Below, piece by piece: positions 727 through 37,844 of a stretch of DNA of 64,000 nucleotides (position 1 is its first letter; each line of letters starts with the position of its first letter). This stretch comes from Opitutaceae bacterium. Its GTDB lineage: Bacteria; Verrucomicrobiota; Verrucomicrobiia; Opitutales; Opitutaceae. The notes below the pieces were generated by a model. It had not been told where the DNA came from, did no database searches, and saw nothing but the letters and a program-made list of their open reading frames with translations. The DNA is taken from contig JAIXWY010000015.1 in NCBI GenBank assembly GCA_027490995.1, positions 59,066-123,065 of the forward strand, written 5' to 3'. The translations under genes and the position numbers were made by a program.

Positions 727-3700
727 TCAGAACCGGCGGGTCAATTCGAAGGACCACGTCCGGCCCGGCAGCAGGTTCTGGAAGACGCCGGGATCGTAGC
801 TGAAGCCCTCAGACGTATTCAGCGGCGGCTCCTTGTCGGTCAGGTTGACCACGCCGAGCGACACCTTGGAATTCCGCAGGAAGACCGGTGCCTCGGCGCC
901 GAAGCTGTAGCCAACGGTCAGGTTGAAGGTGACGACAGGATCGATCACCCGGCGGTACACGGTTTGGCTCCCGGTGAAGAACGGTGTGATGTAGCTGGGT
1001 CGTCCGAGGGACTCATAGATCGCGGCGGTGGTGGTGGCTCCGGAGTCGTGGGTTTCGCCCACGTAGTACGCGCCGGCCAAGGCGGACCATGCGCTGCGGC
1101 GCCAGGCGACGGTGGTCGTGCCGCGCCAGCGCGCGGCACCACCGGCGTAGAGGCCGTTGCTCAGGACGGGGGGCAGGTTTGCCGGGGCAAGGGTGGACTC
1201 GGACTTGGAGAGGCGGGACCACTCGGTGTTCAGGACCACGTTGCCGAAGGAGGTTCGCGGTACGACGTAGCGAAGACCCAGATCGACGCCCGCGTGCTCG
1301 CTGGTGGAGATGTTCACGAAGGGTCGGTTGAGCGAGAAGATGCGACCGGCGGCGGCGCGAAGGGCGTCGGGCGTGGCGGCATTGGCGGTGTTGTACGTCG
1401 CGAAGATCGCCGCGTCTTCCGGCGTCAGCGCGTAGCGTACGACATCCGGGTCGCCCTTGTAGGCGGGCGTGCCGCTGCCGAGGTCGATCGTGGAGATGGC
1501 CTTTCCAGCGGCGAGCTGCGAGCGCGTGTACGCGATGAGCAGGGCGGTGTCGCTGTCGCGGATCTGGGCGACGCTGCGCTGGCCGAGCAGATTTTCGCGG
1601 CTGATCTGCCACCAGTCGGCGGTGACGCTCAGGCCCTTGACCGCCGGGACGTCGATGACGGTCCCGTAGGTGAAGCCCTCGGATTCCTGCGCCTTGAGGT
1701 TCGGATTGCCGCCGAAGTAAGTGCGTTGCACATACGGGCCTTCCCGCGTCACGGTGTTGCGGTAGTTGTCGGGGTCGCCGGCGCCGGCGGAGATCGACCA
1801 CCGCGGGCTGGTGAACAGGGCGGCGAGGCTCGGGGCCATGAAGCCCTCGTTGTAGGAACCGCGGAGCATGACGGCGGGGACGGGGCGCCAGTTGAGACCG
1901 ACCTTCGGCTTGGTGGTGTCGCCGAAGTCGCTGTAGCGCTCGTAGCGGCCGGAAGCGGTGAGCTCGACGGAGTGCAGCAGCGGCAGGGACTGGTTCGGGG
2001 CGAGGAGCGGCACCACCAACTCGGCGTACACGCTGGAGATGCGGCGTTGGCCGATGACGTCGGGGCGCGGCGGATGGAGGAGGAAGTCGTTGTTCAGCGG
2101 ATCGAGACCGGAGCCGGCGGGGTTTTCGCCGCTGAACGGAGGACGCAGATCATCGAGTGTCTCGCGGCGGTACTCGGCGCCGGCGGCGGTGCGGATCGGA
2201 CCGGCCCAGGCATCGAGCAGCGTACCAGCAGTGCGGACATCGCCGCTTGTGATGGAGCTGGTGGCGTTGCGCACGTAGACCTCTGAGAACGCGTCCACGA
2301 CGGCCTGCGGATTCGTGTACGGACGATCGGCGACCACGGCATTGTCCTGCACCTTGAAGGTGTAGCCGAACGGATTGTAGGCGTTGGCGTCCGTGCGTTG
2401 GAGAACCTGCTGGAGGCGACTTTCGCGCACATCCGGGAAGGCCTCATCCGAGCCCTTCACGCGATTGTAGAAGGCCGAGCTCTCCCACGACCACGAGCCC
2501 CCGAGGCGTCCCTTGAGTCCGGCGGCGAGGCGGATGACATCGGCGCGCGTGTCGACGGACTCGGCGGCGAGACCGGCGAGGGTCATGGCGGTGAAGCTGA
2601 CGGTCCGGGGGGCGCCGGTGAGGCGCGGGGAGCCGTCGGTGTGGGGGGCGCCGGTGGCGGAGTAGAAGCGGGAGCCGTAGGGATTGTACGGATTATCGAT
2701 GGCCATGACCATGAGTTGGTCGGAGGTCGGAGCGTTCAGCGCGAGTGGTTGGCGCCGCATCGTCGACAAGGCGGTGTAGTACGACACGTCGGCGAAGGCG
2801 GTGATCCGCTCGTTGACATCGAACTCGCCGGAGACGAACGCATTGCTGCGGCGCGTGCGCGGGGCGGCCATGCCGAACTGGTTCAGGTCGAGGAAGAACT
2901 CCGGATTGGCGGTGCGTGTTGGGGCGACGGACGTCAGAGCGGGTGTGCCGTTGACTGGCCGGAAGTAATTGGCGGCGGTGCCGGTGCCGATGCGGAAGGT
3001 CGGCCAGTAGCCGCGGGCCGAGCGCGCGTCGAAGGGCCCGCCGGCAACGTTGAACGGCGGCTCAGCGCGCGACGAGCTGTCGGCGAAGCGGCTGAAATCG
3101 CGTTCGGTGAGGAAGATGGCATCGCGGTACAGCGCCTCGATCGTGCCGAAGATCCGTCCGCGACCGCCCTCGAGGCTGGTCCCGAACGTGAAGGAGCCCT
3201 GCAGGCTCTCGCCGCCGCCGTGTTCCGGCGCGCCGATCCGCATGGAGGCCTCGCTGCCGTCGAACTGGCGACGCAGGACGTAATTGATCACGCCGCCGAC
3301 GGCATCGGAGCCGTAGATGGACGACGCGCCGTCGCGCAGCACCTCGATGCGCTCGATGCCGCGCGTCGGCAGCTGATTCACATTCACCGCCTGCGAGAGG
3401 CCGGCGGTCATGGGATTCACGGCCATGCGGCGGCCATTCACGAGGATGAGCGTGGCGGTGGCGCCCATGTTCCGCAGATTGATGTTGGCGTTGTCGCCGC
3501 GCGCGCCGGAGGAGCCGAGGCGCGTTTCGTTTTCCGGCAGGTTCACCACCGAAGGAAGTGAAGTTAGCAGGTCCGCCGGCAGCACGGCGCCGCGGGCGGT
3601 GATGGCGTCTTGGTCGACGATCGAGACCGGCACGACCTTCTCAAGGTCGAGGCGCTCGATGTTGGAGCCCGTGACGACGAAACGCTGGAGCGAGATGGCC

Positions 3701-4052: not shown

Positions 4053-5612
4053 TCAGCGCGCCGGAGCGAGCGTCAGCAGCGCATCGGGGCCGAGGGGCCA
4101 GCCGAGGGCGATCCAGAGGATGAGTAGGGTGAGCCAGACGACGAGGAACGCCGCGGAGTACGGGAGCATCGTGGCGATCATGGTGCCGATGCCCGCGGCG
4201 GGCATGTGGCGTTGCGCGTAGCTGAGCGCGAGTGGGAACATGCCCATCAAGGGCGTGATGATGTTGGTGACGCTGTCGCCGACGCGGAACGCCGCCTGGG
4301 TGAGTTCCGGGCTGTAGCCCAGCAGCATGAACATCGGCACGAAGATTGGCGCGAGCAGGGTCCACTTGGCGGAGGCGCTGGCGATCAGCAGGTTCACCGT
4401 ACCGGTGAAGAGAACGAGGGCGATCATCAGGAGGATGGGCTGATCCTGCAGGCCGAGGCCGCGGATCGCTCCGGCGCCTTGGACGGCGATGATGGTGCCG
4501 AGGTTGGTCCAGTTGAAGAACGCAATGAACTGCGAGGCGAAGAATGCCATCACGAGGTACGAAGCCATCGTCGCCATCGCAGAGTTCATGCCCTTCGCGA
4601 CATCGTGATCGCTGCGCACGGTGCCGGCGGCCACGCCGTAGGCGAGGCCCGCGACGAACCCGGAGAGGAAGATGAAGGCGGTAAGGCCGCGGATGAAGAA
4701 ACTCTGAAAGAAGTCAGCGGGATTGCTCGGATCACGCAGGAAACCCTGCCCGGCTCCGCCCACCGGCAGGCAGCCCCAGACCGTGATCGCCGCGAGCGCA
4801 AGCGAGGCCACCGTCGCCGCGATCAATCCGCGCCGTTCCGCCGCGCTCAATGGCGTAAGGGGCTCCCGCGGGCTTGAGCCCTCATAGCGACCCAGGCGCG
4901 GCTCGACGATACGGTCCGAGACCCACCAACCCACGCCGGTGACGAGGAACGTCGAGGCGGCCATGAAGTAGTAGTTGGCAAAGGCCGTCACGCGGATACC
5001 GGGCTGAATGATCTGCGCGGCCACCTCGCTGATGCCGGAAAGCAGCACGTCAATGGTGCCGAGCAGGAGGTTGGCGGAGAATCCGCCGCTGACGCCGGCG
5101 AAGGCCGCCGCGAGGCCGGCCAGCGGGTGGCGACCCACCGCGTGGAAAACCCCGGCCGCGAGCGGCAGCAGAAGCACGTAGCCGACGTCGCCGCCGACAT
5201 TCGACATCACGCCGGCAAACACGACCATCGGCGTGAGTAGGCGCGCCGGCGAGGACAGGACGATCAGGCGCAACGCGGCGCCGATGAGCCCGGTGTATTC
5301 GGCGACCGCGATGCCGAGGAGGCAGACGATCACGGTGCCGAGCGGGGGGAAGTTGATGAAATTTCCGATCACCCCCACCAAGATGCGGTGCAGGCCGTCG
5401 ATGGAAAAGAGGTTCACCACGGCAACCGTCTTGCCTGTCGTGGGATGCGTCGCCGAAACGCCGGCCTCGGCCAACGGCCAAGAGAGGAGGACAACCGCAG
5501 TGGCGAGCAGCGCGAAGAGCGTGGCGGGGTTGGGAAGGCGGTTGCCGACGCGCTCCACCGCGTCGAGCACGCGCTGCAGGCGCGTGGAGGAAGAACTTGG
5601 GGTCGGGGCCAT
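4053..5612 (-). CDS. AbgT family transporter (p-aminobenzoyl-glutamate / antimetabolite transporter family)
   Basis: ORF 4053..5645. Polytopic membrane protein whose N-terminus (...RLQRVLDAVERVGNRLPNPATLFALLATAVVLLSW...) and overall length (~520 aa) are typical of AbgT/MtrF/YdaH. Start trimmed to the ATG at 5612 (MAPTPSSS). Confidence 0.8.
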   Translation of the reverse strand: MAPTPSSSSTRLQRVLDAVERVGNRLPNPATLFALLATAVVLLSWPLAEAGVSATHPTTGKTVAVVNLFSIDGLHRILVGVIGNFINFPPLGTVIVCLLGIAVAEYTGLIGAALRLIVLSSPARLLTPMVVFAGVMSNVGGDVGYVLLLPLAAGVFHAVGRHPLAGLAAAFAGVSGGFSANLLLGTIDVLLSGISEVAAQIIQPGIRVTAFANYYFMAASTFLVTGVGWWVSDRIVEPRLGRYEGSSPREPLTPLSAAERRGLIAATVASLALAAITVWGCLPVGGAGQGFLRDPSNPADFFQSFFIRGLTAFIFLSGFVAGLAYGVAAGTVRSDHDVAKGMNSAMATMASYLVMAFFASQFIAFFNWTNLGTIIAVQGAGAIRGLGLQDQPILLMIALVLFTGTVNLLIASASAKWTLLAPIFVPMFMLLGYSPELTQAAFRVGDSVTNIITPLMGMFPLALSYAQRHMPAAGIGTMIATMLPYSAAFLVVWLTLLILWIALGWPLGPDALLTLAPAR

Positions 5613-5833
5613 GACCCAGCGAATGAGCACCCGTCCGGGACGCAAGCCTCCGGCGCGGCGCGGGTGCAGTACGGTGCGGCGGGCGGGGGAGGTTAAGGGT
5701 GATCAGCCCGTGAGCGAAACCGGCGCCGGGTGGCGCGGACCGGAATCGAACCGCCTCACGCGGCTCCGTTTGTCTTGCCGTGCGGGATCGGGTGCGGTGC
5801 ATTTTCGTCCCCCGTCATCCCCCTTTTCCCCGT

Positions 5834-8599
5834 ATGACTGCTCCGCTCCGCTCCTTCGTCCGTTCACTCCTCCGTCCGTCGCGTCGCCTCGCGCCCCTCT
5901 GGGTCGCGGCGGGTTGCCTCGGTGCCGGAACGCTGTTGGCCCAGCCCGCCCCGGCAACCAAGCCGACCGCGGCCGCCCCGGCGGAAAAGGATCCGGAGAT
6001 CGTGACGACCGACCTATTCACGCTCCCAGAGGGTCTGGAAATCACCGTGTGGGCGCACACCCCGTTGGTCCGCAATCCGACCAACATCGACTTCGACCAG
6101 CATGGCCGCCTGTGGGTCGCCGAGGGCGTCAATTACCGCAGCCACGCCCAGCGCCAGCCAGCAGGTGACCAAATCCTCATCCTCGAAGACACCGACGGCG
6201 ATGGCCGGGCGGATCGCTCCGAGCGCTTCGTCCAGGAACCCGGCTTCATCGCCCCGCTGGGGGTCGCGGTCCTCGGCGACAAGATCGTCGTCTCCCAGAC
6301 GCCCGACCTGCTGGTCTTCACCGATGTCGATGGCGACCGCCGGTTCGATCCGGCCAAGGATCGTCGCGAGGTGCTCCTGACCGGCTTCAACGGCAAGAAT
6401 CATGACCACAGCTTGCACTCGGTCACCGCCGGTCCCGATGGCCTGTGGTACTGGAACGCGGGTAACAACGGCGCGCTCTTCACCGATCGCTCCGGCAAGA
6501 CGTTCCGCGTCGGCAGCCCCTACGACCCGAGGGGCAAGGAGCCGCTGTTCAACCCGACCCTGATCGCCGGGCAGCGCAGCGACGACGGCCGCGTCTGGAT
6601 CGGCGGTTTTATGGCCCGCATGAACCCGGACGGCACGAACGTCACGATCATCGGCCACAACTTCCGCAATAGCTACGAGCAGACGATCACCTCCTTCGGG
6701 GATGTGTTCCACTCCGATAACGACGACCCGCCCGCGTGCCGCGTCAGCTTCGTGCTTGAGTACGGCAACGCCGGCTTTGCCTCGCTCGATGGCCAGCGTT
6801 CTTGGCAGGCCGACCGCCGTCCGGGTCAGGACATTCCCACGGCCCAGTGGCGGCAGGAGGATCCGGGTTCGATGCCGTCCGGCGACGTCTACGGCGGCGG
6901 TTCGCCGACCGGCGTGGCGTTCTACGAGAACGGCGCGCTCGATCCCAAGTGGAACGGCCTGCTGCTCGCCTGCGAGGCCGGAAAGAACGTGATCTTCGGT
7001 TACTTCCCTAAGCCCGAGGGCGCCGGATTCCGCCTCGACCGGATGGATTTTCTGACCTCGAACCCGATGAAGCAGTTCGCGGGTTCGGATTTCGTGCAGG
7101 GGAAGGTCAACCGCGAGCTCCGCACCTGGTTCCGCCCCTCGGATGTCACGGTGGGCCCGGATGGTGCGATCTACGTCGCCGACTGGTTCGATCCCCGCGT
7201 CGGCGGCCACGCCGACCTCGACAAGGCGACCAGTGGCACGATCTACCGGATCGCGCCAAAGGGCTTCCGTCCGAAGATACCCACGTTCGACCTCGCGACC
7301 ACCGCCGGCCAGATCGAGGCCCTGCGCAGCCCCGCGGTCAATGTCCGCAACCTCGGCTTCACGCGTCTCAAGGCGCAGGGCGAGGCGGCGGTGCCGGCGG
7401 TGGCGGCACTGCTCTCTGACTCCAATCGCTTCATCGCCGCGCGCGCGGTCTGGCTGCTCGCGCAGATGGGCCCGGCCGGCGTCGCCCGCGTGCGCCCGCT
7501 GCTGAACTCCAAGGACGACGCCCAGCGGCTGCTCGCTTTCCGCGCCCTGCGCCGCGCTGGCATCGACCTTCTTGAAAACGCCCGCCGTCTCGCGACCGAC
7601 CCGTCCCTCGCCGTGCGGCGGGAAGTGGCGGTGGTGCTGCGCGACATCCCGGCGGCCGACAGCGTGCCGCTGCTCGTGCAGTTGGCGCGCCAGTACGACG
7701 GCCAGGACCGCACCTACCTCGAAGCCTGGGGCATCGGCTGCGAAGGCAAGGCCAGCGCGGTGTACGCCGCGCTCGTTGCCGACCAGCCCGCTGACCCGAC
7801 GGCGTGGAGCGTCGCGTTCGCCCGTCTCGCCTGGCGCCTCCACCTGCCGGAGTCGGCCGCTGCGTTCCGCGCCCGGGCGCTGGCCTCGTCGCTTTCCCCG
7901 GAGCTGCGCAAGGAGGCGATGACGGCTCTCGCCTTCACTTCGTCCACCGAAGCGGTGGCGGCGATGGTGGAACTGGCAACAAGTAAGGAATTTCCGGATG
8001 CCGAAACCGCGAACTGGTGGCTGCGCAACCGTATGGGCAATCTCTGGGACCCCTTCGACGTCGGCGGCGCGATGGAGGCCCGCGGCCTGCCGAACCCGGA
8101 AAAAGCGACGCTCACGTCGTCGATCATCCCGGAACCTCCCGCCACGGCCACGCCCGGACTCAGCGTGCCTGAGGTGCTCGCGCTGTCCGGCGACGCCGCG
8201 CGCGGTAAGGATACGGTCGCGGCCTGTTACCTTTGTCACAAGATCGGCCGCGTGGGAAATGACTTCGGGCCGAACCTAACCGTGTTTGGCCGCCAGCAGC
8301 CGCGTGAGGTGATTGCCCAAGCGATTCTTTATCCCTCGGCCGACATCTCGCATGGCTTCGATGGCAGCCGGATCGAGACCCACGATGGCGTGGTGATCGA
8401 CGGGATGATTCTCTCCCAGCGCAGCCCGATCATCGTGCGCATGATGGGTGGAACGACGCAGCAGATCTGGCGCAAGCGGATCAAGTCGATCACACGCCAT
8501 GAGCGTTCGCTGATGTTCACGCCGCAGCAACTCGGCCTGACCCCGCAGTCGGTTGCCGACATCATCGCCTTCATGCAGTCGGACCTGATCGAGCGCTGA
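5834..8599 (+). CDS. PVC-type heme-binding protein: membrane-bound dehydrogenase-like beta-propeller + HEAT repeats + C-terminal cytochrome c domain
   Basis: ORF 5780..8599. Signal peptide after the ATG at 5834 (MTAPLRSFVRSLL...LGAGTLLAQPAPA). N-terminal region resembles glucose/sorbosone dehydrogenase (LPEGLEITVWA...NIDFDQHGRLWVAEG). Central region has HEAT-like repeats (AVNVRNLGFTRLKAQGEAAVPAVAALL...). CxxCH heme motif CYLCH at 8225..8239. Confidence 0.8.
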   Translation: MTAPLRSFVRSLLRPSRRLAPLWVAAGCLGAGTLLAQPAPATKPTAAAPAEKDPEIVTTDLFTLPEGLEITVWAHTPLVRNPTNIDFDQHGRLWVAEGVNYRSHAQRQPAGDQILILEDTDGDGRADRSERFVQEPGFIAPLGVAVLGDKIVVSQTPDLLVFTDVDGDRRFDPAKDRREVLLTGFNGKNHDHSLHSVTAGPDGLWYWNAGNNGALFTDRSGKTFRVGSPYDPRGKEPLFNPTLIAGQRSDDGRVWIGGFMARMNPDGTNVTIIGHNFRNSYEQTITSFGDVFHSDNDDPPACRVSFVLEYGNAGFASLDGQRSWQADRRPGQDIPTAQWRQEDPGSMPSGDVYGGGSPTGVAFYENGALDPKWNGLLLACEAGKNVIFGYFPKPEGAGFRLDRMDFLTSNPMKQFAGSDFVQGKVNRELRTWFRPSDVTVGPDGAIYVADWFDPRVGGHADLDKATSGTIYRIAPKGFRPKIPTFDLATTAGQIEALRSPAVNVRNLGFTRLKAQGEAAVPAVAALLSDSNRFIAARAVWLLAQMGPAGVARVRPLLNSKDDAQRLLAFRALRRAGIDLLENARRLATDPSLAVRREVAVVLRDIPAADSVPLLVQLARQYDGQDRTYLEAWGIGCEGKASAVYAALVADQPADPTAWSVAFARLAWRLHLPESAAAFRARALASSLSPELRKEAMTALAFTSSTEAVAAMVELATSKEFPDAETANWWLRNRMGNLWDPFDVGGAMEARGLPNPEKATLTSSIIPEPPATATPGLSVPEVLALSGDAARGKDTVAACYLCHKIGRVGNDFGPNLTVFGRQQPREVIAQAILYPSADISHGFDGSRIETHDGVVIDGMILSQRSPIIVRMMGGTTQQIWRKRIKSITRHERSLMFTPQQLGLTPQSVADIIAFMQSDLIER

Positions 8600-29135: not shown

Positions 29136-29621
29136 TCAGGGCACGCCTGCCGCGGGCAGAAGGCCCGTCAGATCAATGGCCCCTTCGCTCTTGGTCTTGA
29201 TCTCCATTCGCTCCTCGCCCGCCGTCACGAACAGCGTGCTCTCAATGCGGTAGGCGGCCTGCTGCCGCTGGGCGACGTTGCGCAGGACGTTGAGCAGCGC
29301 GCCGTTCTTCACCATCACGGTCACGTCCTGCGTCCCCGTGGAGAGTGGCGCGAGGCCCACCGGACGATCGCTGACCGCCTGGCCGACGTAAGTGCCGTTG
29401 AGGTAGAACTTGTGCCGGGATCCGCCGAAGCCGACCGGGACCACGTTTTCGTTGGTGTACCGGAGGCCAAGGACGACCTGCGTCTCCAGGAGTTCAGCTT
29501 GGGCGGAACGGATCGTGACCACGCTCACCGCAATGCCGCCGAGCTTGCCCCCAGATCTGCAACCCCCGAGGAGCAGCGCGATCGCGACCAGCGGAAACAA
29601 AAGGAATGCTTTGCGGTTCAT
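29136..29621 (-). CDS. LEA14/LEA_2 (WHy, NDR1/HIN1-like) domain lipoprotein
   Basis: ORF 29136..29705, trimmed to the ATG at 29621. Lipobox MNRKAFLLFPLVAIALLLGGC. Beta-rich domain: VVLGLRYTNENVVPVGFGGSRHKFYLNGTYVGQAVSD...TQDVTVMV. Confidence 0.65.
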   Translation of the reverse strand: MNRKAFLLFPLVAIALLLGGCRSGGKLGGIAVSVVTIRSAQAELLETQVVLGLRYTNENVVPVGFGGSRHKFYLNGTYVGQAVSDRPVGLAPLSTGTQDVTVMVKNGALLNVLRNVAQRQQAAYRIESTLFVTAGEERMEIKTKSEGAIDLTGLLPAAGVP

Positions 29622-29769
29622 GCTTCGGTGGATGGCGGGACCGCGGGCCGATCGCAAGACTCCGCCCATTCGGAGTGTGCAGAAAGGCTCCTGCTTTGGG
29701 GCCAACGCCCACCGTGAGCCGCTATCGCACTACGATGGCATCACTAGGCCGATGGTCGGCCGACTTGGG

Positions 29770-30042
29770 TCAGAAAAGCGACAAGGCGCGTGCGCTCTCG
29801 AGTCCGACCCAGGCGACGCCACCGCCGACGGAGGCGGCGACGACAAAGCGGACGAGGCGCTGGCGGCGCAGGCGGGCTTCATGCCGGTCGGAGGCGATGC
29901 CGCGGCCGAGTCCCTGCTGCGCCATGAAGCTGACAAACTGCGCGTTTCGCAGCGCGGTGCGGCGTTCCAGGCGGGCGTTATCCACCTTCCCCAAAGGATG
30001 GAGAGGACGATGGAAGATCGACTGGAGAATCCGCTGCAGCAC
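29770..30042 (-). CDS. possible small protein (51-90 aa) with C-terminal hydrophobic segment
   Basis: The 90-codon ORF (GTG at 30042; internal ATG at 29925) has G/C at most third codon positions. This periodicity is out of phase with the lysA frame. C-terminal LVRFVVAASVGGGVAWVGL. No family recognised. Confidence 0.35.
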   Translation of the reverse strand: MLQRILQSIFHRPLHPLGKVDNARLERRTALRNAQFVSFMAQQGLGRGIASDRHEARLRRQRLVRFVVAASVGGGVAWVGLESARALSLF

Positions 30043-30135
30043 GGGTTGGAGAAGCTAAGTTTTGATTCGTTTTTTCAAGGGGAAACGCGCACTTTTTACG
30101 CCCTTCAGCCATTTTGTTCGCGAACTGCTTTTTTC

Positions 30136-31440
30136 ATGCACCACTTCCGCTACACGGGTAACGATCTGCACTGCGAATCCGTCAATCTCGCCGAGGTCGC
30201 GCGGCTCTACGGCACGCCGACCTACGTCTATAGCGCGGCGACGATGACCGACAATTACACGCGTTTGGCGAAGAGCCTGACCGGTCTCGATCTCCAGATC
30301 TGCTATGCGATGAAGGCGAACTCGGCGCTGGCGATCCTGCGTCACTTCGCGAACCTCGGCGCGGCCTTTGACCTCGTGAGCGGCGGCGAACTGCGCCGGG
30401 TGCTCGCCGCCGGAGCGAACGTGAAGCGCAGTGTCTTCGCGGGCGTCGGCAAGACGAGCGAGGAGATCGAGCTCGCGCTGCAGAACGGTATTTTTGCGTT
30501 CCACGTCGAGAGCGAGCCCGAGATGGCCCGCATCAATCACGTCGCCGGTCGCTTGGGCGTGAAGGCCCCGATCGCCATCCGCATCAATCCGGATGTCGAC
30601 GCGCACACACATGCCAAGATCACGACGGGCAAGTCGGACAACAAGTTCGGCATCCCGCTGAAGGTCGCCGGCGCCGCCTACGAGGCGGCCGCCAAGTACC
30701 CGAACCTGCGGATCAAGGGCGTGCAGATGCACATCGGTTCCCAGCTCACCGATGTCGCACCGTTCGTCGAGGCGGTGAAGAAGGTCACGCCGTTCGTCGC
30801 CGAGTTGAAGGCCAAGCACGGAATCGACTACTTCTCGATCGGTGGTGGCATCGGCATCATCTACCGCGACGCGTTGGCGAGCGGTTCCGCCGAGTGGTGG
30901 GACGCCCAGCCGGCCGGCCAGCGTCCGCTCACGCCCGAGGCCTACGGCGCCGCCCTGGTACCGCTCCTCCAGCCGCTCGGCCTGAAGATCCTGCTCGAGC
31001 CGGGCCGCTTCCTCGTCGGCAACGCCGGCGTCCTCCTCTCCCGGGTCGAATTCGTGAAGCGCGGTTCCGCGAAGAATTTCGTCATCATCGACGCCGCGAT
31101 GAACGACCTGGTGCGGCCCGCGATGTACGACGCCTTCCACGAGATTGTCCCGCTCCACCGCGACACGTCGCGCCCGGCAATGGTGTCCGACATCGTGGGC
31201 CCGGTTTGCGAGAGCGGAGACTGCTTCGCCAAGGAGCGCTCGCTCCAGCAGGTCGGCGAGGGCGAGTACGTGGCTTTGCTCAGCGCCGGCGCCTACGGCT
31301 ACACGATGGCCAGCCGCTACAACACGCGCGGCATGGCCGCCGAGGTGCTCGTCAAGGGCAGCGCGTTCGAACTCGTGCACGAGCGCGAGTCGTTCGAGAC
31401 GATGATCGCGGGCGAACGCGTCCCGGCGTTCCTCAAGTAG
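30136..31440 (+). CDS. lysA: diaminopimelate decarboxylase
   Basis: ORF 29410..31440, trimmed to the ATG at 30136 (MHHFRYTGNDLHCESVNLAEVARLYGTPTYVYS). PLP-lysine motif ICYAMKANSALAIL. Also contains GGGIGIIY, EPGRFLVGNAG and CESGD. Confidence 0.93.
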   Translation: MHHFRYTGNDLHCESVNLAEVARLYGTPTYVYSAATMTDNYTRLAKSLTGLDLQICYAMKANSALAILRHFANLGAAFDLVSGGELRRVLAAGANVKRSVFAGVGKTSEEIELALQNGIFAFHVESEPEMARINHVAGRLGVKAPIAIRINPDVDAHTHAKITTGKSDNKFGIPLKVAGAAYEAAAKYPNLRIKGVQMHIGSQLTDVAPFVEAVKKVTPFVAELKAKHGIDYFSIGGGIGIIYRDALASGSAEWWDAQPAGQRPLTPEAYGAALVPLLQPLGLKILLEPGRFLVGNAGVLLSRVEFVKRGSAKNFVIIDAAMNDLVRPAMYDAFHEIVPLHRDTSRPAMVSDIVGPVCESGDCFAKERSLQQVGEGEYVALLSAGAYGYTMASRYNTRGMAAEVLVKGSAFELVHERESFETMIAGERVPAFLK

Positions 31441-31451
31441 CCGAAGTGGTC

Positions 31452-31478
31452 CGGTCCACCGCCTCGCGCGGTGGATCG
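31452..31478 (+). terminator. GC-rich hairpin just after lysA (no U-tract)
   Basis: CGGTCCACCGC / GCGGTGGATCG forms about 12 bp with a 5-nt loop, 12 nt after the lysA stop. Its right arm can alternatively pair with CGATCCACC (31494-31502). Confidence 0.35.
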
Positions 31479-31797
31479 TCGCCCCGTTCCCGTCGATCCA
31501 CCGGCCCTGCCTAGGGGTGGTGGATGCTACCCGCCGTTGCGGAGCGGCACCCCCGTTCCCGGTTGTCTGGCGGCTGGTTCCGTCTTCGCTGACGGCGCAG
31601 GGTCGCGGCGTGCCGCCCGTCGCCTCCGTTTTCCTGCTGCGTGACCGCGCCCGCCCGAGTTGGCGGGGCGGCGCTGCGGACCCGCGCGCGAACGCGGACA
31701 CGCCGGTCCGTCGGACCGGCTCGCTCTTTCGTGTCTCCCCGCTGCGCGGGCAATCCCGTCCGCGGGCGAAAATCCGGGAGTCGCGAAGCATAACACC

Positions 31798-31995
31798 ATG
31801 AACTCAGTGACACGGTTGACCCTCGATGAAGCGGCGCTTGCTCAATGCCAGGGCGGCTTCCTGCCGGCCCTGCCCCCGATCCTGCCCTTTCGCTTGGACG
31901 ATGTACCCGGGCTGTGCGAGCCGCTGCGGCAGTTGATGCGCCCGACTACGCTGGCAGACTTTCTGCGACAGCTCGGCCTGTCGGCGGAGCAATAG
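31798..31995 (+). CDS. candidate double-glycine-leader peptide precursor (bacteriocin/pheromone-like), 65 aa
   Basis: ATG at 31798 inside track ORF 31660..31995. Sequence: MNSVTRLTLDEAALAQCQGG|FLPALPPILPFRLDDVPGLCEPLRQLMRPTTLADFLRQLGLSAEQ. GG codons at 31852..31857. About 3/4 of third positions are G/C. It ends 50 nt before the C39-ABC exporter gene on the same strand. Confidence 0.55.
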   Translation: MNSVTRLTLDEAALAQCQGGFLPALPPILPFRLDDVPGLCEPLRQLMRPTTLADFLRQLGLSAEQ

Positions 31996-32045
31996 TCCCA
32001 TGTCGTGGAGCGCGGGCGAGTCTGGACGTGGGGAGTGGCGCGACG

Positions 32046-34220
32046 ATGCGGCAGCGTGATCAGACGGATTGTGGGCCGACTTGCCTCGCCTACCTCTGCC
32101 GGCGGTTTGGCCGCCCGGAGTCAGTCGCCCGCCTGCGCCAGTGGGCGGGAACGGACCGCGGGGGCACCAGTGCGCTCGGGCTGATCCAAGCGGCGCGCCG
32201 GATGGGCGTCCGCTTGGAGGGCGTGAAGGGAACGGCTGGGGAGATCGACGGCTTGCCGGTTCCCTTCATCGCCCACGTCCTACTCCCGACCGGCCACCCG
32301 CACTTCGTGGTGGTGGAGAAGATCGGCGTCCGGTGGCTGGGCGTGATGGATCCAGCGGTCGGGGTGGTGGCGCGCTGGCCGCGGGAGCGATTTGCGGCGG
32401 CGGCCTCCGGTGTTTTCCTGCTGGCCGCCGTCGCGCCGGAGAGCGGGGAGTCAGCGACCGCGGGTCAGCCGTGTGCCAGTGCCGTTGCCGCGGGCCAACC
32501 GCAAGCATGGCGGGGCGCTTGGTGGCGCGGCCCCTGGGCTCGTCTGGCAGGCCTGCTCTGGCCGCACCGTTCGCTGGTCCTGCGGGCGGTCGTCGCGGCC
32601 GTTGTCGCGACGGTGCTGAGCCTCGCGTTTTCGCTCTACGTCGAGCGGGTCGTCGATGCGGTTGTGCCGCGGCAGGATGTCCACCTGCTCACGGTTCTCG
32701 GGGTCGCGATGCTTCTGATTGTGGCCGTGAGGCAGGCGCTCGGGTGGATCCAAGGTTGGTGGGTGCTGCGGCTCGGTCAGCGACTCGATGCCGCGCTCAT
32801 CCTCGGCTATCACCGGCATCTGCTGGCGTTGCCGGCGACGTTTCATGAGGGCATGCGGGTCGGCGACCTCCTGGCGCGTGTGGGCGACGCGATCAAGGTT
32901 CGGACGTTCCTAAGCACGACGCTGGTGGGCATGGCGCTGCATCCGCTGCTGCTGGTGGGAGCGCTGGTGGCGCTGTTTGTGCTCCACTCGACGCTCGGGC
33001 AGATCGCGGCCGTGTTGCTTGCGGTGCAGGCGGCGCTGGCGCCGGTGGTGAGTCGGGTGAGTCGGGAGCGGCAGCGTGAGTTGCTGCAGCGAGGATCGGA
33101 GTGGCAGGCGCACCTTGCGGAGTCGCTCGCGCACCACGGCACGGTTCGCGCCCTGCGCTGGGAGGCGCGGGAGGAGCAGCGAGCCGAGCAGCAACTCGGG
33201 CGCCTGCTCGGCGCCAGTCGCAGCGTGGTCGTCGCGGGCCTCTGGACCGCGGTCTTCGGGCAGGGCACCGCGCAGGTTTACACCGTGGCGACCCTGTGGG
33301 TGGGCGCGTCGCTGGTGCTGCAGGATCAGTTGACGCTGGGTCAGCTGATGAGTGCGTACGCGCTCTCGGGCTACGTGGCGGGTCCGGCGGCGGCGTTGCT
33401 GGGCCTGAGCGGTAGCGTGCAGGAGGCCGTGGCGGCGACAGAGCGGCTCTTCGAGGTGATGGACCTGGAGCGCGAGGGGCGGACGGGGCGGCTGCGGTTG
33501 GAAGACGGAAGCGGCGGCGCGGTGCGGTTGGAGGACGTGAGTCTGCAGCCGGCGGGACGGCTTCCGATCCTGCGGGATCTCACGCTGGAGATTGTGCCGG
33601 GCCGATGGACCGCCCTCGCGGGCGCGTCGGGTAGCGGCAAGAGCTCGGTGCTGGCGCTCGTGCAAGGGGCGGTTCGGCCCAGCTCCGGCCGCGTCCTGCT
33701 CGACGGGAGGGAGCTGGAGCTTTTTGAAAGTGGGGCGCTGCGCGATACCCTCTCCGTGTTGCCGCAGCGCGTGGAACTCTTTTCCGGCACGGTGCTCGAC
33801 AATCTTACCGGAGACGCGACATCCCCGGACCTTCCGCGGCTCATCGAGGCGTGTCGCGATGCGGGGGTGCTTGAGTGGATCGAGTCGCAGCCGCAGGGCT
33901 TCGGCACCGTCCTGATGGAGGGTGGGGCCGCGCTCTCGGGTGGGCAGCGGCAGCGACTCGCGCTAGCGCGCGCGCTTTATCGGCCGTGCCGGTTACTCGT
34001 ACTCGATGAGCCCACCTCGGCGTTGGATGCGGACGCCGAGCAACGGATCGTCGCGGCCCTGCGGCGCCGCGTGGATGCTGGCGTCACGCTGCTCGTCGCG
34101 TCGCACGCCCCGGCACTGCTCGCCGCGGCGGACACGGTGCTGCATCTGGAAGGAGGTCGTGGCGTACGGGAGGATCGCCGAGCCCGCGCTCCGCTGGCCA
34201 TGGCTCCGTCCTCGGTGTGA
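32046..34220 (+). CDS. peptidase C39 domain-containing ABC transporter (bacteriocin/peptide cleavage-export type)
   Basis: ORF 31845..34220, trimmed to the ATG at 32046 (an in-frame GTG at 32028 is also possible). N-terminus MRQRDQTDCGPTCLAYLCRRFG...HPHFVVVEK...VMDPA (Q/C/H/D of papain-like C39). Six-TM ABC membrane domain. Walker A GASGSGKSSV, signature LSGGQRQRLALARAL, Walker B LLVLDEPTSALD, H-loop LLVASHAP. Confidence 0.88.
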   Translation: MRQRDQTDCGPTCLAYLCRRFGRPESVARLRQWAGTDRGGTSALGLIQAARRMGVRLEGVKGTAGEIDGLPVPFIAHVLLPTGHPHFVVVEKIGVRWLGVMDPAVGVVARWPRERFAAAASGVFLLAAVAPESGESATAGQPCASAVAAGQPQAWRGAWWRGPWARLAGLLWPHRSLVLRAVVAAVVATVLSLAFSLYVERVVDAVVPRQDVHLLTVLGVAMLLIVAVRQALGWIQGWWVLRLGQRLDAALILGYHRHLLALPATFHEGMRVGDLLARVGDAIKVRTFLSTTLVGMALHPLLLVGALVALFVLHSTLGQIAAVLLAVQAALAPVVSRVSRERQRELLQRGSEWQAHLAESLAHHGTVRALRWEAREEQRAEQQLGRLLGASRSVVVAGLWTAVFGQGTAQVYTVATLWVGASLVLQDQLTLGQLMSAYALSGYVAGPAAALLGLSGSVQEAVAATERLFEVMDLEREGRTGRLRLEDGSGGAVRLEDVSLQPAGRLPILRDLTLEIVPGRWTALAGASGSGKSSVLALVQGAVRPSSGRVLLDGRELELFESGALRDTLSVLPQRVELFSGTVLDNLTGDATSPDLPRLIEACRDAGVLEWIESQPQGFGTVLMEGGAALSGGQRQRLALARALYRPCRLLVLDEPTSALDADAEQRIVAALRRRVDAGVTLLVASHAPALLAAADTVLHLEGGRGVREDRRARAPLAMAPSSV

Positions 34221-34406
34221 CGGATTGCTGGAGCGGCTTGCCGGTGGTCGCGGGCGTGGTGCGACCCGCGGCTGGTCGCGTGGGACGACACCTGTCGAGC
34301 AACTGGTTGCTCGCGGGTGCTTTGAGAGGGATAGGCCCGCGCCCGCGCGTGGTGAGGTGGGCGAGCTGTCCGGTGGGGGCCGGCTCGCGACCTCGTTTAT
34401 TCTGGC

Positions 34407-37400
34407 TTAATCGAGCGGCTGGCGGCCGAGGGTGCCGACGAGAGCGGCGCGGTAGGCGGGAGAAGCCATGCGGGCGAGCTCGCGCTGGGCGTGGATGAGC
34501 CGGCCTCGGATGCCGAGCCGCGCGGCGATGTCGGCGTAGTGCGGTTGGTCGAGGAAGAGTTCGAGTGATTGAACGTGGCGCGTCCAGCGCCGTTGGTCTT
34601 CCGCCTGTTGGGTGTCGAGGCGAGCGGCGTACCACGCGCTTTCCAGCAGGTGGTCACGGGTGAACCGTTGGCGAACGGCGGGCGAGGCCAAGTCCTCGCC
34701 TGCCACCGTCTTGCCGTGAGCCATGATCTCGAGCAAGGCGCGCAGCGGCGGACACGCGAGGGCGGCGCTGCCGTCGTTGAAGTAGCTCTCCGCCACGCGC
34801 TGATGGGTGGCGACGATGTTGTCCATACCGTCGGCGAAGATTTCGGCATCCTGCAGCTCCGGCCGCAGCATCTCCTCGGTGAAGACGGCGTGCGGATGCG
34901 CGAAGACGCGACCGAAGTACGTGCGGACAAACCCGCTGGTGATCCGGTAGCCGAGCCGGCTGGCTGGCACGGTGCGGCCGGCCACGACGAAGTCGCGGCA
35001 CGGCTCAAGGCTTCCTTCTTCAATCAGGTGTCGCGCACTGCGCTCGAGTGAGCTCATGCGGGCGAAGACCTCGGGGACGAGCAGGCTGACGTCGTGGTCG
35101 ACCCGCACCTTCGGACCCACGTAGCCCGCGGCGGAGAGAAAAACGTCGTGGCCGGTCAGAATCAGCGAGACGAGGGCCGCGTTCAGATCGATGATCGGCG
35201 GAAGCGCGTTGAAGGGCAATTTGGTCAGCGCGCCTTCGGAGCCCGCGCCCGTGGTCGACGGGGACTTTCCGGTCATCGAGCTGATGAATTCCATGAACAG
35301 CTCGGGCAGCTCCAAGTGGTGGATCGGGTTGAACACGCACAGCGGCCGCACACCGGGTTCGGGCGGGTTGTTACGCCGTCCGGGGATGACGAGGTGCACC
35401 GGCGTGATCGGCGCGGGGCCGCCGGCGGGCAGCTTCCGCCGCAGGCTCTGGCTCAGATGGGCCAGCGCGGTGCGGTGCGGATTCGCGAGGTCGGGACGGA
35501 GTTGCAGGTAGCGCGGGTTCTTCGATGGCTTCCCGTCCACCAGCCGCGGATGAGCGGAGGAGACGAAGTAGTCCGGCCGCGCTCCGTCCGCGGCGGCAGC
35601 CCGGATCACTTGCTGCATCGGCGGGGTGAAGGCGGAGAAACCAATCGCATCCTCCATCAGCGCCCGCGCGTCATTCGCGGTTAATGGGGCGTAGTTCGAC
35701 AGAAAGTTGCCCGGGCTCGCGATGTCGGCCTCCGCTTGGTTGTCGTAGCCGCGATGGATCGCGTCGTCAGGGCGCTGGAAAAGCCGCGTCTCGCAGTTCT
35801 GGACGAACTTCACCGCAGTGCCGGGCGGCAGCGGTGGTTGCGAGGGAGGCAGGAGGGATTGGGCGACCTGGTGGGCCGGGACTACGATCGAGGCGGTGAT
35901 GTCGTCCTCGAGCTGGACCTTTTCCGCGGGGTGGAAGTCGTGGCGCAGCCCGAAGACGCGCCAGGAACCGTCGCTGGAGAAGCCGACGCGCAGCGTATTG
36001 ACCACGACCTTGCGGCCTCCGTGGCGGAGTTCGTTGGCGGGGCGGCCGTTGATCTGGTCGACGGAAAAATGCCGCCGCCACTGGTCGCCCCACTCCGGCC
36101 GGTGGAAACGCTTGATCACGAACACCAGCTCCTTGATGTGGGGAGGGATCGAGCGCAGCCACTCGTTGTAGGCGTCGGTGTAGTCGGCCGCCGAAGGCGT
36201 GAGCAGCTTGATGACGCTGCCGAAAGAGCGAGCGGGGCTGAGGATGGGTCGGCGGTCCGGTTCGCCGCGCAGGCAGCGGAAACGATCGGCGTAGTCGCGG
36301 GCGAGGATCGCGGCGACCGCATCCATGTCCTTGTCGAAGTCGGCGACGAACACGCTGCCGGACATGATGGCGTCGGTGATGGCCTTGGAGATCTCGGATT
36401 TCCCGCCGCCGGAAACCGTGCAGGGCTTGTGGCAGACGAGGCCCTCGGCGAGGGTGCCGACGAGGCGCCAGCGAGACGGATCGGTCTCGTCGGCCTCGAG
36501 GTTGACGCGATAGCCGCCGGGGCGCATGTAGGTTTTTCCGGCGAGCAGGCGAATCCCTTGCGTGGTGCCATCGGGCTGGATCCAAGACACACGCTGGTCC
36601 TTTAGGCTGAAGTGGGCCTGCTCCGGGATCAGGATAACATCGGTGAGTACCTGATCGAGGGCGTGTCCCTCCGGCTGCAGCTGGAAGCGCCCTGGATAGC
36701 GTGCGATGACATCGGCGATGTTGTAGTGGTCGGGGTCGCCGTAGGCCTCGAAGTCGAGACCGAGATCGTAGGACGGAAAGACGAGTGCCCCGCCGGCGTG
36801 TTCCTCCTCGGCGAGCCCGTGGAGGTTGGCGGCGTAACTCACCTGGGTCTTCACCTCCTTCTTGCAGTACCCGAAGTAGTTGTCGGCGATGAGTGTCACC
36901 ATGACCCCGCGGGTGTCGCGCGCGCAGACCTTGAAGGCGGAGCCCCCGTTGTAGAGCTCGTCCTCGCTCTTCCAGCACATCCCGTCGCGACGCTGGCGCG
37001 GGGTGGCGAGATTCCAGTGGGGCAGGCCGAGCGCATGCTTTGGCACGCGGGTGAGGTGTGGGGCGAGGATGACGCAACCGCTGTGGCCGCTCCAGCCGTC
37101 GACATCGAGAGCGGCGTCGTTTTCGGGGAGCAGCGGATCGCCGGCGTTGCCAAAGATTTCCTCGACGAAGTCGAGGTTGGCGACGAGCGAGCCCGGCACG
37201 AAGAAACGGATCTCCATGCGCTTCTCGGGGATGACCCCGGGTACGGCAGGCACCACGAGTGGACGGAGCAGCAGGGAAACGAAGCCCTCGGCGGGCTGCG
37301 GATTGCGCGCGGTGAACGGCAGGCGGGAGAGGTCGCGCGGAGGATCCAAGGCGATCGCGAGCAGCCGCGAGAAGGCCACCTTCGGCACGGCGAGCTTATC

Positions 37401-37844
37401 GTCTGGCACCGGCAGGCCGCCCTCGGCCACGTGGAACACCCCTTGCGTGGTTCTCCGGTCCGTCAACGGATTGTGCAGCACGCCGTTGTGAATGCGGTAG
37501 CTCTTGAGCAGCGGCGATTCGTGGACATCGGCGTCGGGCGGCAGGGAGAGTTCGCGGGCGAGACCGGGTTGATCGAGGACGAACGTCCGGGCAGGGAGTC
37601 GCGGGGCGGGGCCGCTGTCGCTGAGGTACTGGTTGAGGAAGTGCTGGATGCGGGCGTCGGCGGGGCAGAGGCGGTCGGCCAGCTGACGGGTGATTTCGCG
37701 GTGGCGGGCGAAGATCGGAGCGGTCAGCTGGCTCCACGGCCGGCTCTCGGCGTCGTCGAGCGTCGAATGACCGAGGAGTGCGAGGCGCAGATTGATTGCC
37801 TGCTGCAGGCGCTGGCGGGTGGCGTGATCCGTGGGTTGGCTCAT
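34407..37844 (-). CDS. large conserved cytosolic protein (1145 aa) with HPrK/PEPCK-like P-loop; possibly PPi-dependent PEP carboxykinase family
   Basis: Uninterrupted 1145-codon ORF with non-repetitive, globular-looking sequence. Motif CTVSGGGKSEISKAI (SGGGKSE codons 36393..36413) resembles the SGxGKSE P-loop of HPr kinase/PEPCK-fold enzymes. The size matches the ~130 kDa PPi-PEPCK class. The functional call comes from memory of that family, not from an alignment. Confidence 0.85.
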   Translation of the reverse strand: MSQPTDHATRQRLQQAINLRLALLGHSTLDDAESRPWSQLTAPIFARHREITRQLADRLCPADARIQHFLNQYLSDSGPAPRLPARTFVLDQPGLARELSLPPDADVHESPLLKSYRIHNGVLHNPLTDRRTTQGVFHVAEGGLPVPDDKLAVPKVAFSRLLAIALDPPRDLSRLPFTARNPQPAEGFVSLLLRPLVVPAVPGVIPEKRMEIRFFVPGSLVANLDFVEEIFGNAGDPLLPENDAALDVDGWSGHSGCVILAPHLTRVPKHALGLPHWNLATPRQRRDGMCWKSEDELYNGGSAFKVCARDTRGVMVTLIADNYFGYCKKEVKTQVSYAANLHGLAEEEHAGGALVFPSYDLGLDFEAYGDPDHYNIADVIARYPGRFQLQPEGHALDQVLTDVILIPEQAHFSLKDQRVSWIQPDGTTQGIRLLAGKTYMRPGGYRVNLEADETDPSRWRLVGTLAEGLVCHKPCTVSGGGKSEISKAITDAIMSGSVFVADFDKDMDAVAAILARDYADRFRCLRGEPDRRPILSPARSFGSVIKLLTPSAADYTDAYNEWLRSIPPHIKELVFVIKRFHRPEWGDQWRRHFSVDQINGRPANELRHGGRKVVVNTLRVGFSSDGSWRVFGLRHDFHPAEKVQLEDDITASIVVPAHQVAQSLLPPSQPPLPPGTAVKFVQNCETRLFQRPDDAIHRGYDNQAEADIASPGNFLSNYAPLTANDARALMEDAIGFSAFTPPMQQVIRAAAADGARPDYFVSSAHPRLVDGKPSKNPRYLQLRPDLANPHRTALAHLSQSLRRKLPAGGPAPITPVHLVIPGRRNNPPEPGVRPLCVFNPIHHLELPELFMEFISSMTGKSPSTTGAGSEGALTKLPFNALPPIIDLNAALVSLILTGHDVFLSAAGYVGPKVRVDHDVSLLVPEVFARMSSLERSARHLIEEGSLEPCRDFVVAGRTVPASRLGYRITSGFVRTYFGRVFAHPHAVFTEEMLRPELQDAEIFADGMDNIVATHQRVAESYFNDGSAALACPPLRALLEIMAHGKTVAGEDLASPAVRQRFTRDHLLESAWYAARLDTQQAEDQRRWTRHVQSLELFLDQPHYADIAARLGIRGRLIHAQRELARMASPAYRAALVGTLGRQPLD

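Follow-up and report, generated by a model that had tools for sequence, protein, structure and literature searches.

ATP-binding cassette (ABC) exporters with an N-terminal C39 peptidase domain are well understood in Firmicutes and Enterobacterales, where they work with peptides that carry a double-glycine (GG) leader. Cargos of such peptidase-containing ABC transporters (PCATs) need not be bacteriocins, as shown by the RaxX/RaxB/RaxA system of the diderm Xanthomonas, in which a non-bactericidal signalling GG peptide, Pro-rich and made as a precursor of about 60 aa, is exported by a PCAT. In the NHLP/Nif11-leader systems, with exporters of the TIGR03796 family, cleavage also falls at a GG, and the leader domain is about 70–80 aa long. 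Class II microcins are unmodified ribosomal peptides with a GG signal, and their five-component systems need an MFP (membrane-fusion protein) as well as TolC (PMC9746304). Here we describe a locus of this general kind in a stretch of 64,000 nucleotides (the window) from contig JAIXWY010000015.1 of an Opitutaceae bacterium, in which a 65-codon open reading frame (ORF) just upstream of a PCAT gene very probably encodes a genuine GG-leader peptide, the dedicated cargo of the adjacent exporter.

Systems that combine a GG peptide with a PCAT are already well known (PMC7018657; PMC9746304). This peptide family is undescribed and has some atypical traits: anionic, Pro-rich cores, a housekeeping neighbourhood with neither immunity nor regulator gene, and the loss of an HlyD-type MFP gene with the peptide–exporter pair still under selection. 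A full-text search of the available literature returned no paper describing GG peptides of Opitutaceae or Verrucomicrobia. In ComC/ComA, the BlpAB cargos, the PCAT1 cargo and CvaC/CvaB, as in the window, a short leader ends in Gly-Gly and has hydrophobic residues at −4 and −7 (and at −12 in several members), and the peptide gene adjoins a PCAT gene with catalytic Cys, His and Asp; an HlyD-type MFP gene belongs to the operon in two of the three clades of the window family. Unlike these systems, the window family has a core with no Pfam or NCBIfam match, a position −15 that is not hydrophobic in the window peptide, and an extra motif after the cleavage site in which Pro +3 is invariant and Phe +1 nearly so. 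It shares with the enterobacterial class II microcins (MccV, L, N, PDI, S, H47, M and E492) a diderm host, a GG signal on a ribosomal and probably unmodified peptide, a PCAT and, ancestrally, an MFP (PMC9746304). It differs from them in its anionic, Pro-rich, Gly-poor core of 41–46 aa, its phylum (Verrucomicrobiota) and its core-genome, not accessory, location; the window pair has no adjacent immunity gene, and its clade has lost the MFP gene. The NHLP exporter model TIGR03796 is the best NCBIfam match of the window exporter, but at 336 bits this match lies far under the 853-bit cut-off, and in contrast to NHLP/Nif11 systems the leader has 15–20 aa and the peptide matches no family. The likeness to RaxX is one of description, not of sequence similarity. 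The window core has no Tyr, and no sulfotransferase gene lies nearby; the only locus with one beside its PCAT is the distant L079.

The small ORF begins with an ATG at 31798, ends with a TAG at 31993–31995 and encodes MNSVTRLTLDEAALAQCQGG/FLPALPPILPFRLDDVPGLCEPLRQLMRPTTLADFLRQLGLSAEQ, the slash marking the predicted cleavage site. Its GC content at codon positions 1/2/3 is 0.712/0.455/0.773, a coding-type pattern for a window of 67.5% GC (exporter gene: 0.78/0.52/0.83), and its stop codon is separated by 50 nt from the exporter ATG at 32046 and by 32 nt from an in-frame GTG (32028). An earlier note, made from the letters of the window, had given the same ORF, product and spacing, about three quarters G/C at third positions, and a C39 ABC exporter on the same strand; coordinates and Pfam searches agree with it. 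Its description of a double-glycine leader also stands: the GG occupies codons 19–20 (31852–31857) and is preceded by Cys at −4, Leu at −7, Leu at −12 and Asp/Glu at −11/−10. The published rule places hydrophobic residues at −4, −7, −12 and −15 ahead of the GG (PMC7018657); where three or four of the four are expected, the window peptide has three (Cys −4, Leu −7, Leu −12), with Cys counted as hydrophobic. The window was also scanned for a loose GG-leader pattern that asked for GG at 14–30, an acidic residue between −11 and −8, and hydrophobicity at −4, −7 and −12. Among 1,470 ORF/start combinations of 35–120 aa in six frames, it occurred only in the small ORF and two in-frame fragments of long genes, and the small ORF was the sole match among the 412 ATG-started ORFs. 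No second copy of the peptide was found in the window by tblastn.

The evidence that carries this reading is comparative. A protein search with the exporter gave a graded series from 100% down to 34% identity, and a scan of one genome per species found three metagenome-assembled genomes (MAGs) with exporters 85% identical and three further Opitutaceae/Verrucomicrobia MAGs at 51–52%, which places the window in Opitutaceae (Verrucomicrobiota). Every exporter ortholog examined (51–88% identity) has a homologous small gene directly upstream, and peptide homologs occur in 16 related loci, always directly 5′ of the exporter gene where the contig reaches it. These loci (numbered with L) fall into three contexts. 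In the window clade, consisting of the window, L001–L009 and L073, the order is lysA–peptide–PCAT, with exporters 73–88% and peptides 77–100% identical. L074–L076 (exporters 56–58%) have the order lysA–(panB)–HlyD–peptide–PCAT at the same chromosomal position as the window, and L074 has a 4-nt overlap between the HlyD stop and the start of the peptide gene. L010 reads Vut_1–HlyD–peptide–PCAT–ATP-grasp, and L011 and L012 likewise have an HlyD-type gene, the peptide and the PCAT in succession, in a neighbourhood unlike that of the window; exporters of L010–L012 are 51–52% identical, and the peptides of these last two groups have 58–60 aa. A word-indexed search of 5.8 billion proteins found four peptide homologs (83–100% identity), on whose contigs lysA, the small ORF and the C39-ABC gene follow in order as far as the contigs extend. 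An exhaustive profile search with a hidden Markov model against 1.84 billion representative proteins returned two clusters of true relatives only; long repetitive proteins from the same search were set aside as compositional matches. Because that search missed the L074–L076 and L011 types, the family is wider than it shows, and the more divergent peptide subtypes were found through synteny only.

In a ten-sequence alignment the distant peptides are 22–31% identical to that of the window, and there is no variation at Met1, Leu −7, the Gly-Gly or Pro +3. The GG is present in 10/10 peptides at the end of leaders of 15–20 aa, where about 15–30 residues ending in Gly-Gly (or GA/GS) are expected. 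Position −4 is occupied by C, V, I or T and −12 by L, A or N; Phe +1 is kept in all distant peptides but one, a C-terminal Pro (Pro49) is nearly invariant, and a P-x-[TS]-[LM]-x-[DE] ... G segment near the C-terminus is common to the family. The conserved positions are those that the literature gives for recognition by the C39 domain (PMC7018657). The L010-type leader MKVASLSELAAVRGG, with Glu at −8, Leu at −7 and Val at −4 before the GG, is a classical one. It closely resembles the leader of colicin V, which we take to be the 15 residues MRTLTLNELDSVSGG. The earlier note had counted in the window peptide a 45-aa core with seven Pro, a single Cys and a net charge of about −1, as we do, and had found it unlike the cationic, Gly-rich class II bacteriocins; this holds family-wide, all cores having 41–46 residues, net charges of −1 to −7, four to nine Pro, little Gly and no conserved Cys. 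Nor did it recognise a named family, in line with our searches: Pfam gave only a sub-threshold chance match to the peptide (Adeno_PX, E = 0.0098, below cut-off), and NCBIfam gave none at E ≤ 1, including the NHLP/Nif11 leader models TIGR03793 and TIGR03798.

The small ORF is a real gene under purifying selection. Comparison with L001 shows 14 codons changed synonymously and 11 non-synonymously, with 8, 7 and 18 differences at codon positions 1, 2 and 3. Its Nei–Gojobori ratio of non-synonymous to synonymous substitution rates (dN/dS) is 0.18–0.35 over the whole 65 codons, against 0.85–3.9 in the other two sense frames; the exporter has 0.15–0.19, and its C39 part 0.08–0.10. Against the more distant L073, dN/dS is 0.28 for the peptide and 0.24 for the exporter, both being 77% identical. 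The ratio is also low (0.29–0.31) in the antisense frame that shares the wobble position, as the geometry of the frames leads one to expect; that frame has a stop within the window sequence and a lower GC content at position 1 than at position 2, a non-coding pattern. A 65-aa, ATG-started antisense ORF at 31804–32001 (−) was rejected as a gene, with a dN/dS of about 0.9–1.0, and is a by-product of GC-rich coding DNA.

The neighbouring gene, 50 nt away on the same strand, has the make-up of a PCAT in a single chain: a C39 peptidase with Cys9, His86 and Asp102, a six-helix ABC transmembrane domain, and a nucleotide-binding domain with intact motifs for Walker A (GASGSGKS), the signature (LSGGQ) and Walker B (LLVLDE) (Table 1). 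Residues 2–707 align to residues 17–702 of PCAT1 of Clostridium thermocellum (4ry2; E = 5.5e-87), and ComA matches residues 3–713. The Q-x5-C (RQRDQTDCG), HFVV and MDP motifs align to PCAT1 and are kept in 12/12 of the orthologs and relatives examined. From this alignment and the intact motifs, the exporter is therefore a true PCAT and not an HlyB-type protein with an inactive C39-like domain, and it looks active, as predicted from its kept catalytic and ATPase motifs. The start MRQRDQTDCG is conserved in most orthologs; since the in-frame GTG at 32028 is not (GTA or GAA in L001, L005 and L007), we take the ATG at 32046 as the start. An extension to 31845, overlapping the small ORF, in a mechanical ORF list was rejected: its GC by codon position is non-coding (0.81/0.75/0.51), a stop closes it in L010 and L012, and there the frame opens only at MRQRDQTDCG. 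Besides the TIGR03796 match, the NCBIfam model bacteriocin_ABC scores 334 against a cut-off of 524 bits.

Table 1. Features of the peptide–exporter locus and its counterparts. Positions refer to the window or to the locus named; a slash marks the predicted cleavage site.
Sequence	Feature	Position	Strand	Basis or remark
Window	Terminator-like hairpin and T-run after lysA	31605..31632	+	Pattern scan; block GCAGGGTCGCGGCGTGCCGC invariant in alignment A5
Window	Near-invariant non-coding block before start codon	31710..31797	+	8-locus alignment; predicted hairpins
Window	Predicted GG precursor peptide gene, 65 codons (stop codon included in span)	31798..31995	+	ORF, translation, GC by position, homologs, dN/dS
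Window	Predicted 20-aa leader MNSVTRLTLDEAALAQCQGG; cut predicted after Gly20	31798..31857	+	Family conservation; published GG-leader rule
Window	Predicted mature core FLPALPPILPFRLDDVPGLCEPLRQLMRPTTLADFLRQLGLSAEQ, 45 aa	31858..31992	+	Conserved Pro +3, Phe +1, Pro49, C-terminal segment
Window	PCAT, 724 aa	32046..34220	+	Pfam C39, ABC_membrane and ABC_tran; full-length alignments
Window	C39 peptidase domain, residues 2-128; Gln3, Cys9 (32070-32072), His86, Asp102	32049..32429	+	PF03412, E 2.5e-23
Window	Transmembrane domain, residues 181-446	32586..33383	+	PF00664, E 7e-42
Window	ATP-binding cassette, residues 509-658	33570..34019	+	PF00005, E 3.5e-26
L073	Peptide MNSVHALILDEATLARCQGG/FLPTLP...			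Exporter 73%
L074	Peptide MKTQVMNVSEMLVECRGG/IEPLSQ...			Exporter 58%
L075	Peptide MKTIQPASSDLLVATVGG/FAPLNV...			Exporter 57%
L076	Peptide MKTQLLLDSASLVHVQGG/FAPLNL...			Exporter 56%
L011	Peptide MTMTSLRALDLAEIRGG/FAPLSE...			Exporter 52%
L012	Peptide MKTATFPELAAVHGG/FEPLTS...			Exporter 52%
L010	Peptide MKVASLSELAAVRGG/FAPLTG...			Exporter 51%
L074	HlyD-type gene, between lysA/panB and peptide	6326-7696
L075	HlyD-type gene, between lysA/panB and peptide	6469-7749
L076	HlyD-type gene, between lysA/panB and peptide	6393-7676
L077	Tandem GG-leader peptide region	4977-5902
L078	Tandem GG-leader peptide region	4908-5533
L079	Tandem GG-leader peptide region	4637-5810

The pairing of peptide and exporter and the GG motif are conserved, and the protease and ATPase motifs are intact. 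The earlier note had named the small ORF as the cognate cargo of the adjacent C39 exporter and had proposed, as a test, to look 5′ of orthologous C39-ABC genes for small ORFs with a conserved GG; such an ORF stands before every ortholog examined, with the GG invariant, and pairing, motif, selection and catalytic residues together support the claim. From these comparisons we infer that the two genes are co-transcribed and that the peptide is cleaved after Gly20 and exported. A common transcript, begun in the conserved region upstream of 31798, would cover both genes. The 20-residue leader would then use Leu −7, Cys −4 and Leu −12 to dock onto the C39 domain of the exporter, placing Gly-Gly at the entrance to the active site, and Cys9/His86/Asp102 would cleave after Gly20. 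Driven by ATP, the ABC core would carry the mature part of 45 residues, which is Pro-rich and slightly acidic, across the inner membrane. The locus is a clean, minimal and conserved cargo–exporter pair with a defined predicted cleavage site.

Several observations weigh against the peptide being such a cargo. The nearest Shine–Dalgarno-like sequence, GGGAG, lies 17 nt from the ATG, too distant for a classic site; the A/C-rich start context AACACC-ATG is common to L010. Position −15 is Arg in the window peptide (R, T or A across the family), and −8 is Ala where Glu is usual. An AlphaFold2 prediction from a 7-sequence alignment was uninformative, with a predicted local distance difference test score of 49. 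No HlyD-type gene was found beside the pair or elsewhere in the window with four HlyD proteins from orthologous loci (E ≤ 0.1), a search that covered these 64 kb and leaves a copy elsewhere in the genome possible. Finally, in none of the three contexts does an immunity-type, regulator or sensor gene lie next to the pair.

We give next to no probability to the reading that the small ORF is no gene and stands open merely by chance in GC-rich DNA. Spurious ORFs are common in high-GC genomes, and 110 ORFs of at least 40 aa overlap the region of 26–40 kb, the antisense ORF at 31804–32001 among them; yet frame, length, start and functional residues are kept in every ortholog and the substitutions are biased towards synonymous ones, and this conservation and substitution pattern effectively refute a chance frame already. 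The ORF could instead be a gene whose product stays in the cell, either an upstream regulatory ORF or a cytoplasmic small protein controlling the exporter, and its place 50 nt upstream on the same strand, after a strongly conserved and structured non-coding block, would suit this, as would the missing MFP for export across two membranes in the window clade. We give this a very small probability: upstream ORFs rarely keep their amino-acid sequence so far, whereas here purifying selection extends along all 65 codons (dN/dS 0.18–0.35), the residues conserved in peptides otherwise 22–31% identical are exactly those of the C39 cleavage site (Leu −7, GG), and the L074 peptide gene, overlapping the HlyD stop, is an ordinary operon member. 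A modified cargo, that is, a precursor of a RiPP (a peptide made by ribosomes and modified post-translationally) whose core is altered by enzymes encoded elsewhere before cleavage at the GG and export, would be a special case of the exported peptide. Many GG-leader peptides are RiPP precursors (PMC10885120), a convergent downstream gene in L010 and L011 encodes an ATP-grasp/Alpha-E protein, and a transglutaminase-like gene stands upstream in L011. These enzymes are, however, absent from the window, L073 and L074–L076 loci, where the exporter is followed by PPi-dependent phosphoenolpyruvate carboxykinase (PPi-PEPCK) or other genes; no pattern of Cys, Ser/Thr or Tyr is conserved in the core, and neither an NHLP or Nif11 leader match nor an exporter score near the cut-off (336 against 853 bits) points that way, and we consider modification to have a small probability.

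Another special case of an exported cargo is a class II microcin or bacteriocin in the strict sense, a toxin released through PCAT, MFP and TolC with its immunity gene elsewhere. Precursor plus PCAT, with an HlyD-type MFP in L010–L012 and L074–L076, is the class II microcin architecture (PMC9746304). Distant relatives of the PCAT sit in loci with immunity-type genes, and between L075 and L076 the peptide diverges faster than the exporter (41% against 77% identity; dN/dS 0.58 against 0.14), as expected in a toxin arms race. Against this, no immunity-like small membrane protein lies beside the pair in any of the three contexts and downstream ORFs are not conserved; the pair is single-copy, at a fixed core-genome site between lysA and PPi-PEPCK and not on an accessory island; the window-clade peptide is as conserved as its exporter (77% each), and the MFP gene is absent from the window-clade locus. 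The cores are anionic and Pro-rich, and to our knowledge no characterised class IIa microcin has such a core. On balance we regard a strict microcin as possible, if rather doubtful. A core that is acidic and Pro-rich, a missing immunity gene, a core-genome site and persistence after MFP loss all suggest a role other than classical bacteriocin warfare. For the cargo peptide itself we lean towards a lineage-specific extracellular or periplasmic effector, either a signal or a narrow-spectrum antagonist, and leave the two unsettled because the immunity and regulator genes that would decide between them are lacking at the locus. A more speculative proposal, which we hold to be rather unlikely, is that the family is no bacteriocin but an Opitutaceae exopeptide of the core genome, passed on vertically, acidic and Pro-rich with a conserved FxPL N-terminus, with a signalling or physiological role, and that the window-clade exporter has no dedicated MFP. 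If true, the peptide would be released into the periplasm or another MFP/TolC would be borrowed, and a PCAT system would have been reduced to two genes in a diderm and selected long after the loss of its MFP gene.

The fate of the MFP gene can be followed through the contexts. Judging from the gene orders, the HlyD-type gene found ahead of the peptide in the other clades was lost from the window clade; no remnant of it gave a significant tblastn or blastn match in the 357-nt spacer between lysA and the peptide. Both genes are under purifying selection across a synonymous divergence (dS) of 0.4–0.7 within the window clade, so the two-gene unit appears to be still functional; either an MFP from another locus serves it, or the cargo is set free in the periplasm. 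This invites the question how, in a diderm cell, a PCAT can function when its cognate MFP is missing.

The spacer itself (31441–31797, about 75% GC) has two blocks that are conserved well above synonymous sites in eight loci, namely 31441 to about 31630 and the roughly 75 nt before the ATG. The latter are nearly identical in all eight, L073 included, where dS of the flanking genes is 0.4–0.7. The first block includes a hairpin, GATCCACCGC-CTCGC-GCGGTGGATC, in which L001 and L008 show a double change from A:T to G:C, and the variable middle of the spacer has indels of 20, 5 and 2 nt. Hairpins predicted in the proximal block reach −41.7 kcal/mol (z = −2.8); the block has no sequence variation and hence no covariation. 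An Rfam scan of 31300–32150 gave only a chance DnaX match (E = 0.25), and a sigma-70 promoter scan found none. The conserved blocks are possibly a promoter/operator, a 5′ untranslated region (5′-UTR) element or a small RNA, and the proximal one is probably a promoter or 5′-UTR element of the peptide–exporter operon that replaces co-transcription with HlyD.

The window pair stands among housekeeping genes, with carB, purU, sdhA, sdhB and lysA upstream and, downstream of the exporter, a convergent gene for a 1145-aa protein whose orthologs carry a PPi-PEPCK domain. The protein itself (34407–37844, −) has no Pfam match, and its 1144–1145-aa orthologs in L073–L075 have precomputed PF26300 (PEPCK_PPi_lobe_2) matches; it is probably a PPi-dependent phosphoenolpyruvate carboxykinase, and the local Pfam copy may lack the PF26300 model. 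Downstream ORFs considered as immunity candidates (34217–34498; L002 2780–3112) were rejected, as they are not conserved between the window and L002. Between sdhB and lysA lie a LEA_2-domain gene (29136–29705, −) and a gene of about 90 aa (29770–30042, −), both syntenic in the L001, L073, L075 and L076 loci. Because the long plus-strand ORF 29410–31440 overlaps both, and lysA orthologs have 434 aa, the true lysA start is later. In L010 (8128–10671, −) and L011 (8091–11363, −) a fusion of circularly permuted ATP-grasp and Alpha-E lies convergent to the PCAT gene, and the transglutaminase-like gene of L011 is at 2118–3044 (+). The ATP-grasp/Alpha-E/transglutaminase-like trio is a known conserved neighbourhood; we rejected the ATP-grasp/Alpha-E neighbour as a modifying enzyme of the system, since it is absent from the other clades.

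The earlier note had taken the ORF to be of a size that escapes annotation. This is not so, as the identical 65-aa product is present on 25 public contigs, labelled "hypothetical protein". With some gene callers the peptide starts further upstream, at TTG or GTG codons, and has 77 or 111 aa, and several public calls (JGI) give the exporter 672 aa, starting about 52 residues late and thus without the catalytic Cys9. Such start-site errors could conceal both genes from automated mining. The practical value is modest: a better annotation for a "hypothetical protein" and a candidate secreted peptide of freshwater Opitutaceae.

More distant PCAT relatives, 36–48% identical (L077–L079), belong to classical bacteriocin-type loci with two or three GG peptides each. 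These loci have, as an immunity-type gene, one for an Rce1-like/CPBP protein (L077) or a hydrophobic-looking 237-aa ORF (L079), and they have an MFP (L077, L078) together with a LuxR- or AraC-type regulator. The source pipeline called none of the three L078 peptides as a gene, and two of them read GG/FAPL and GG/LAPL at the junction. In L079 a sulfotransferase gene directly follows the PCAT gene.

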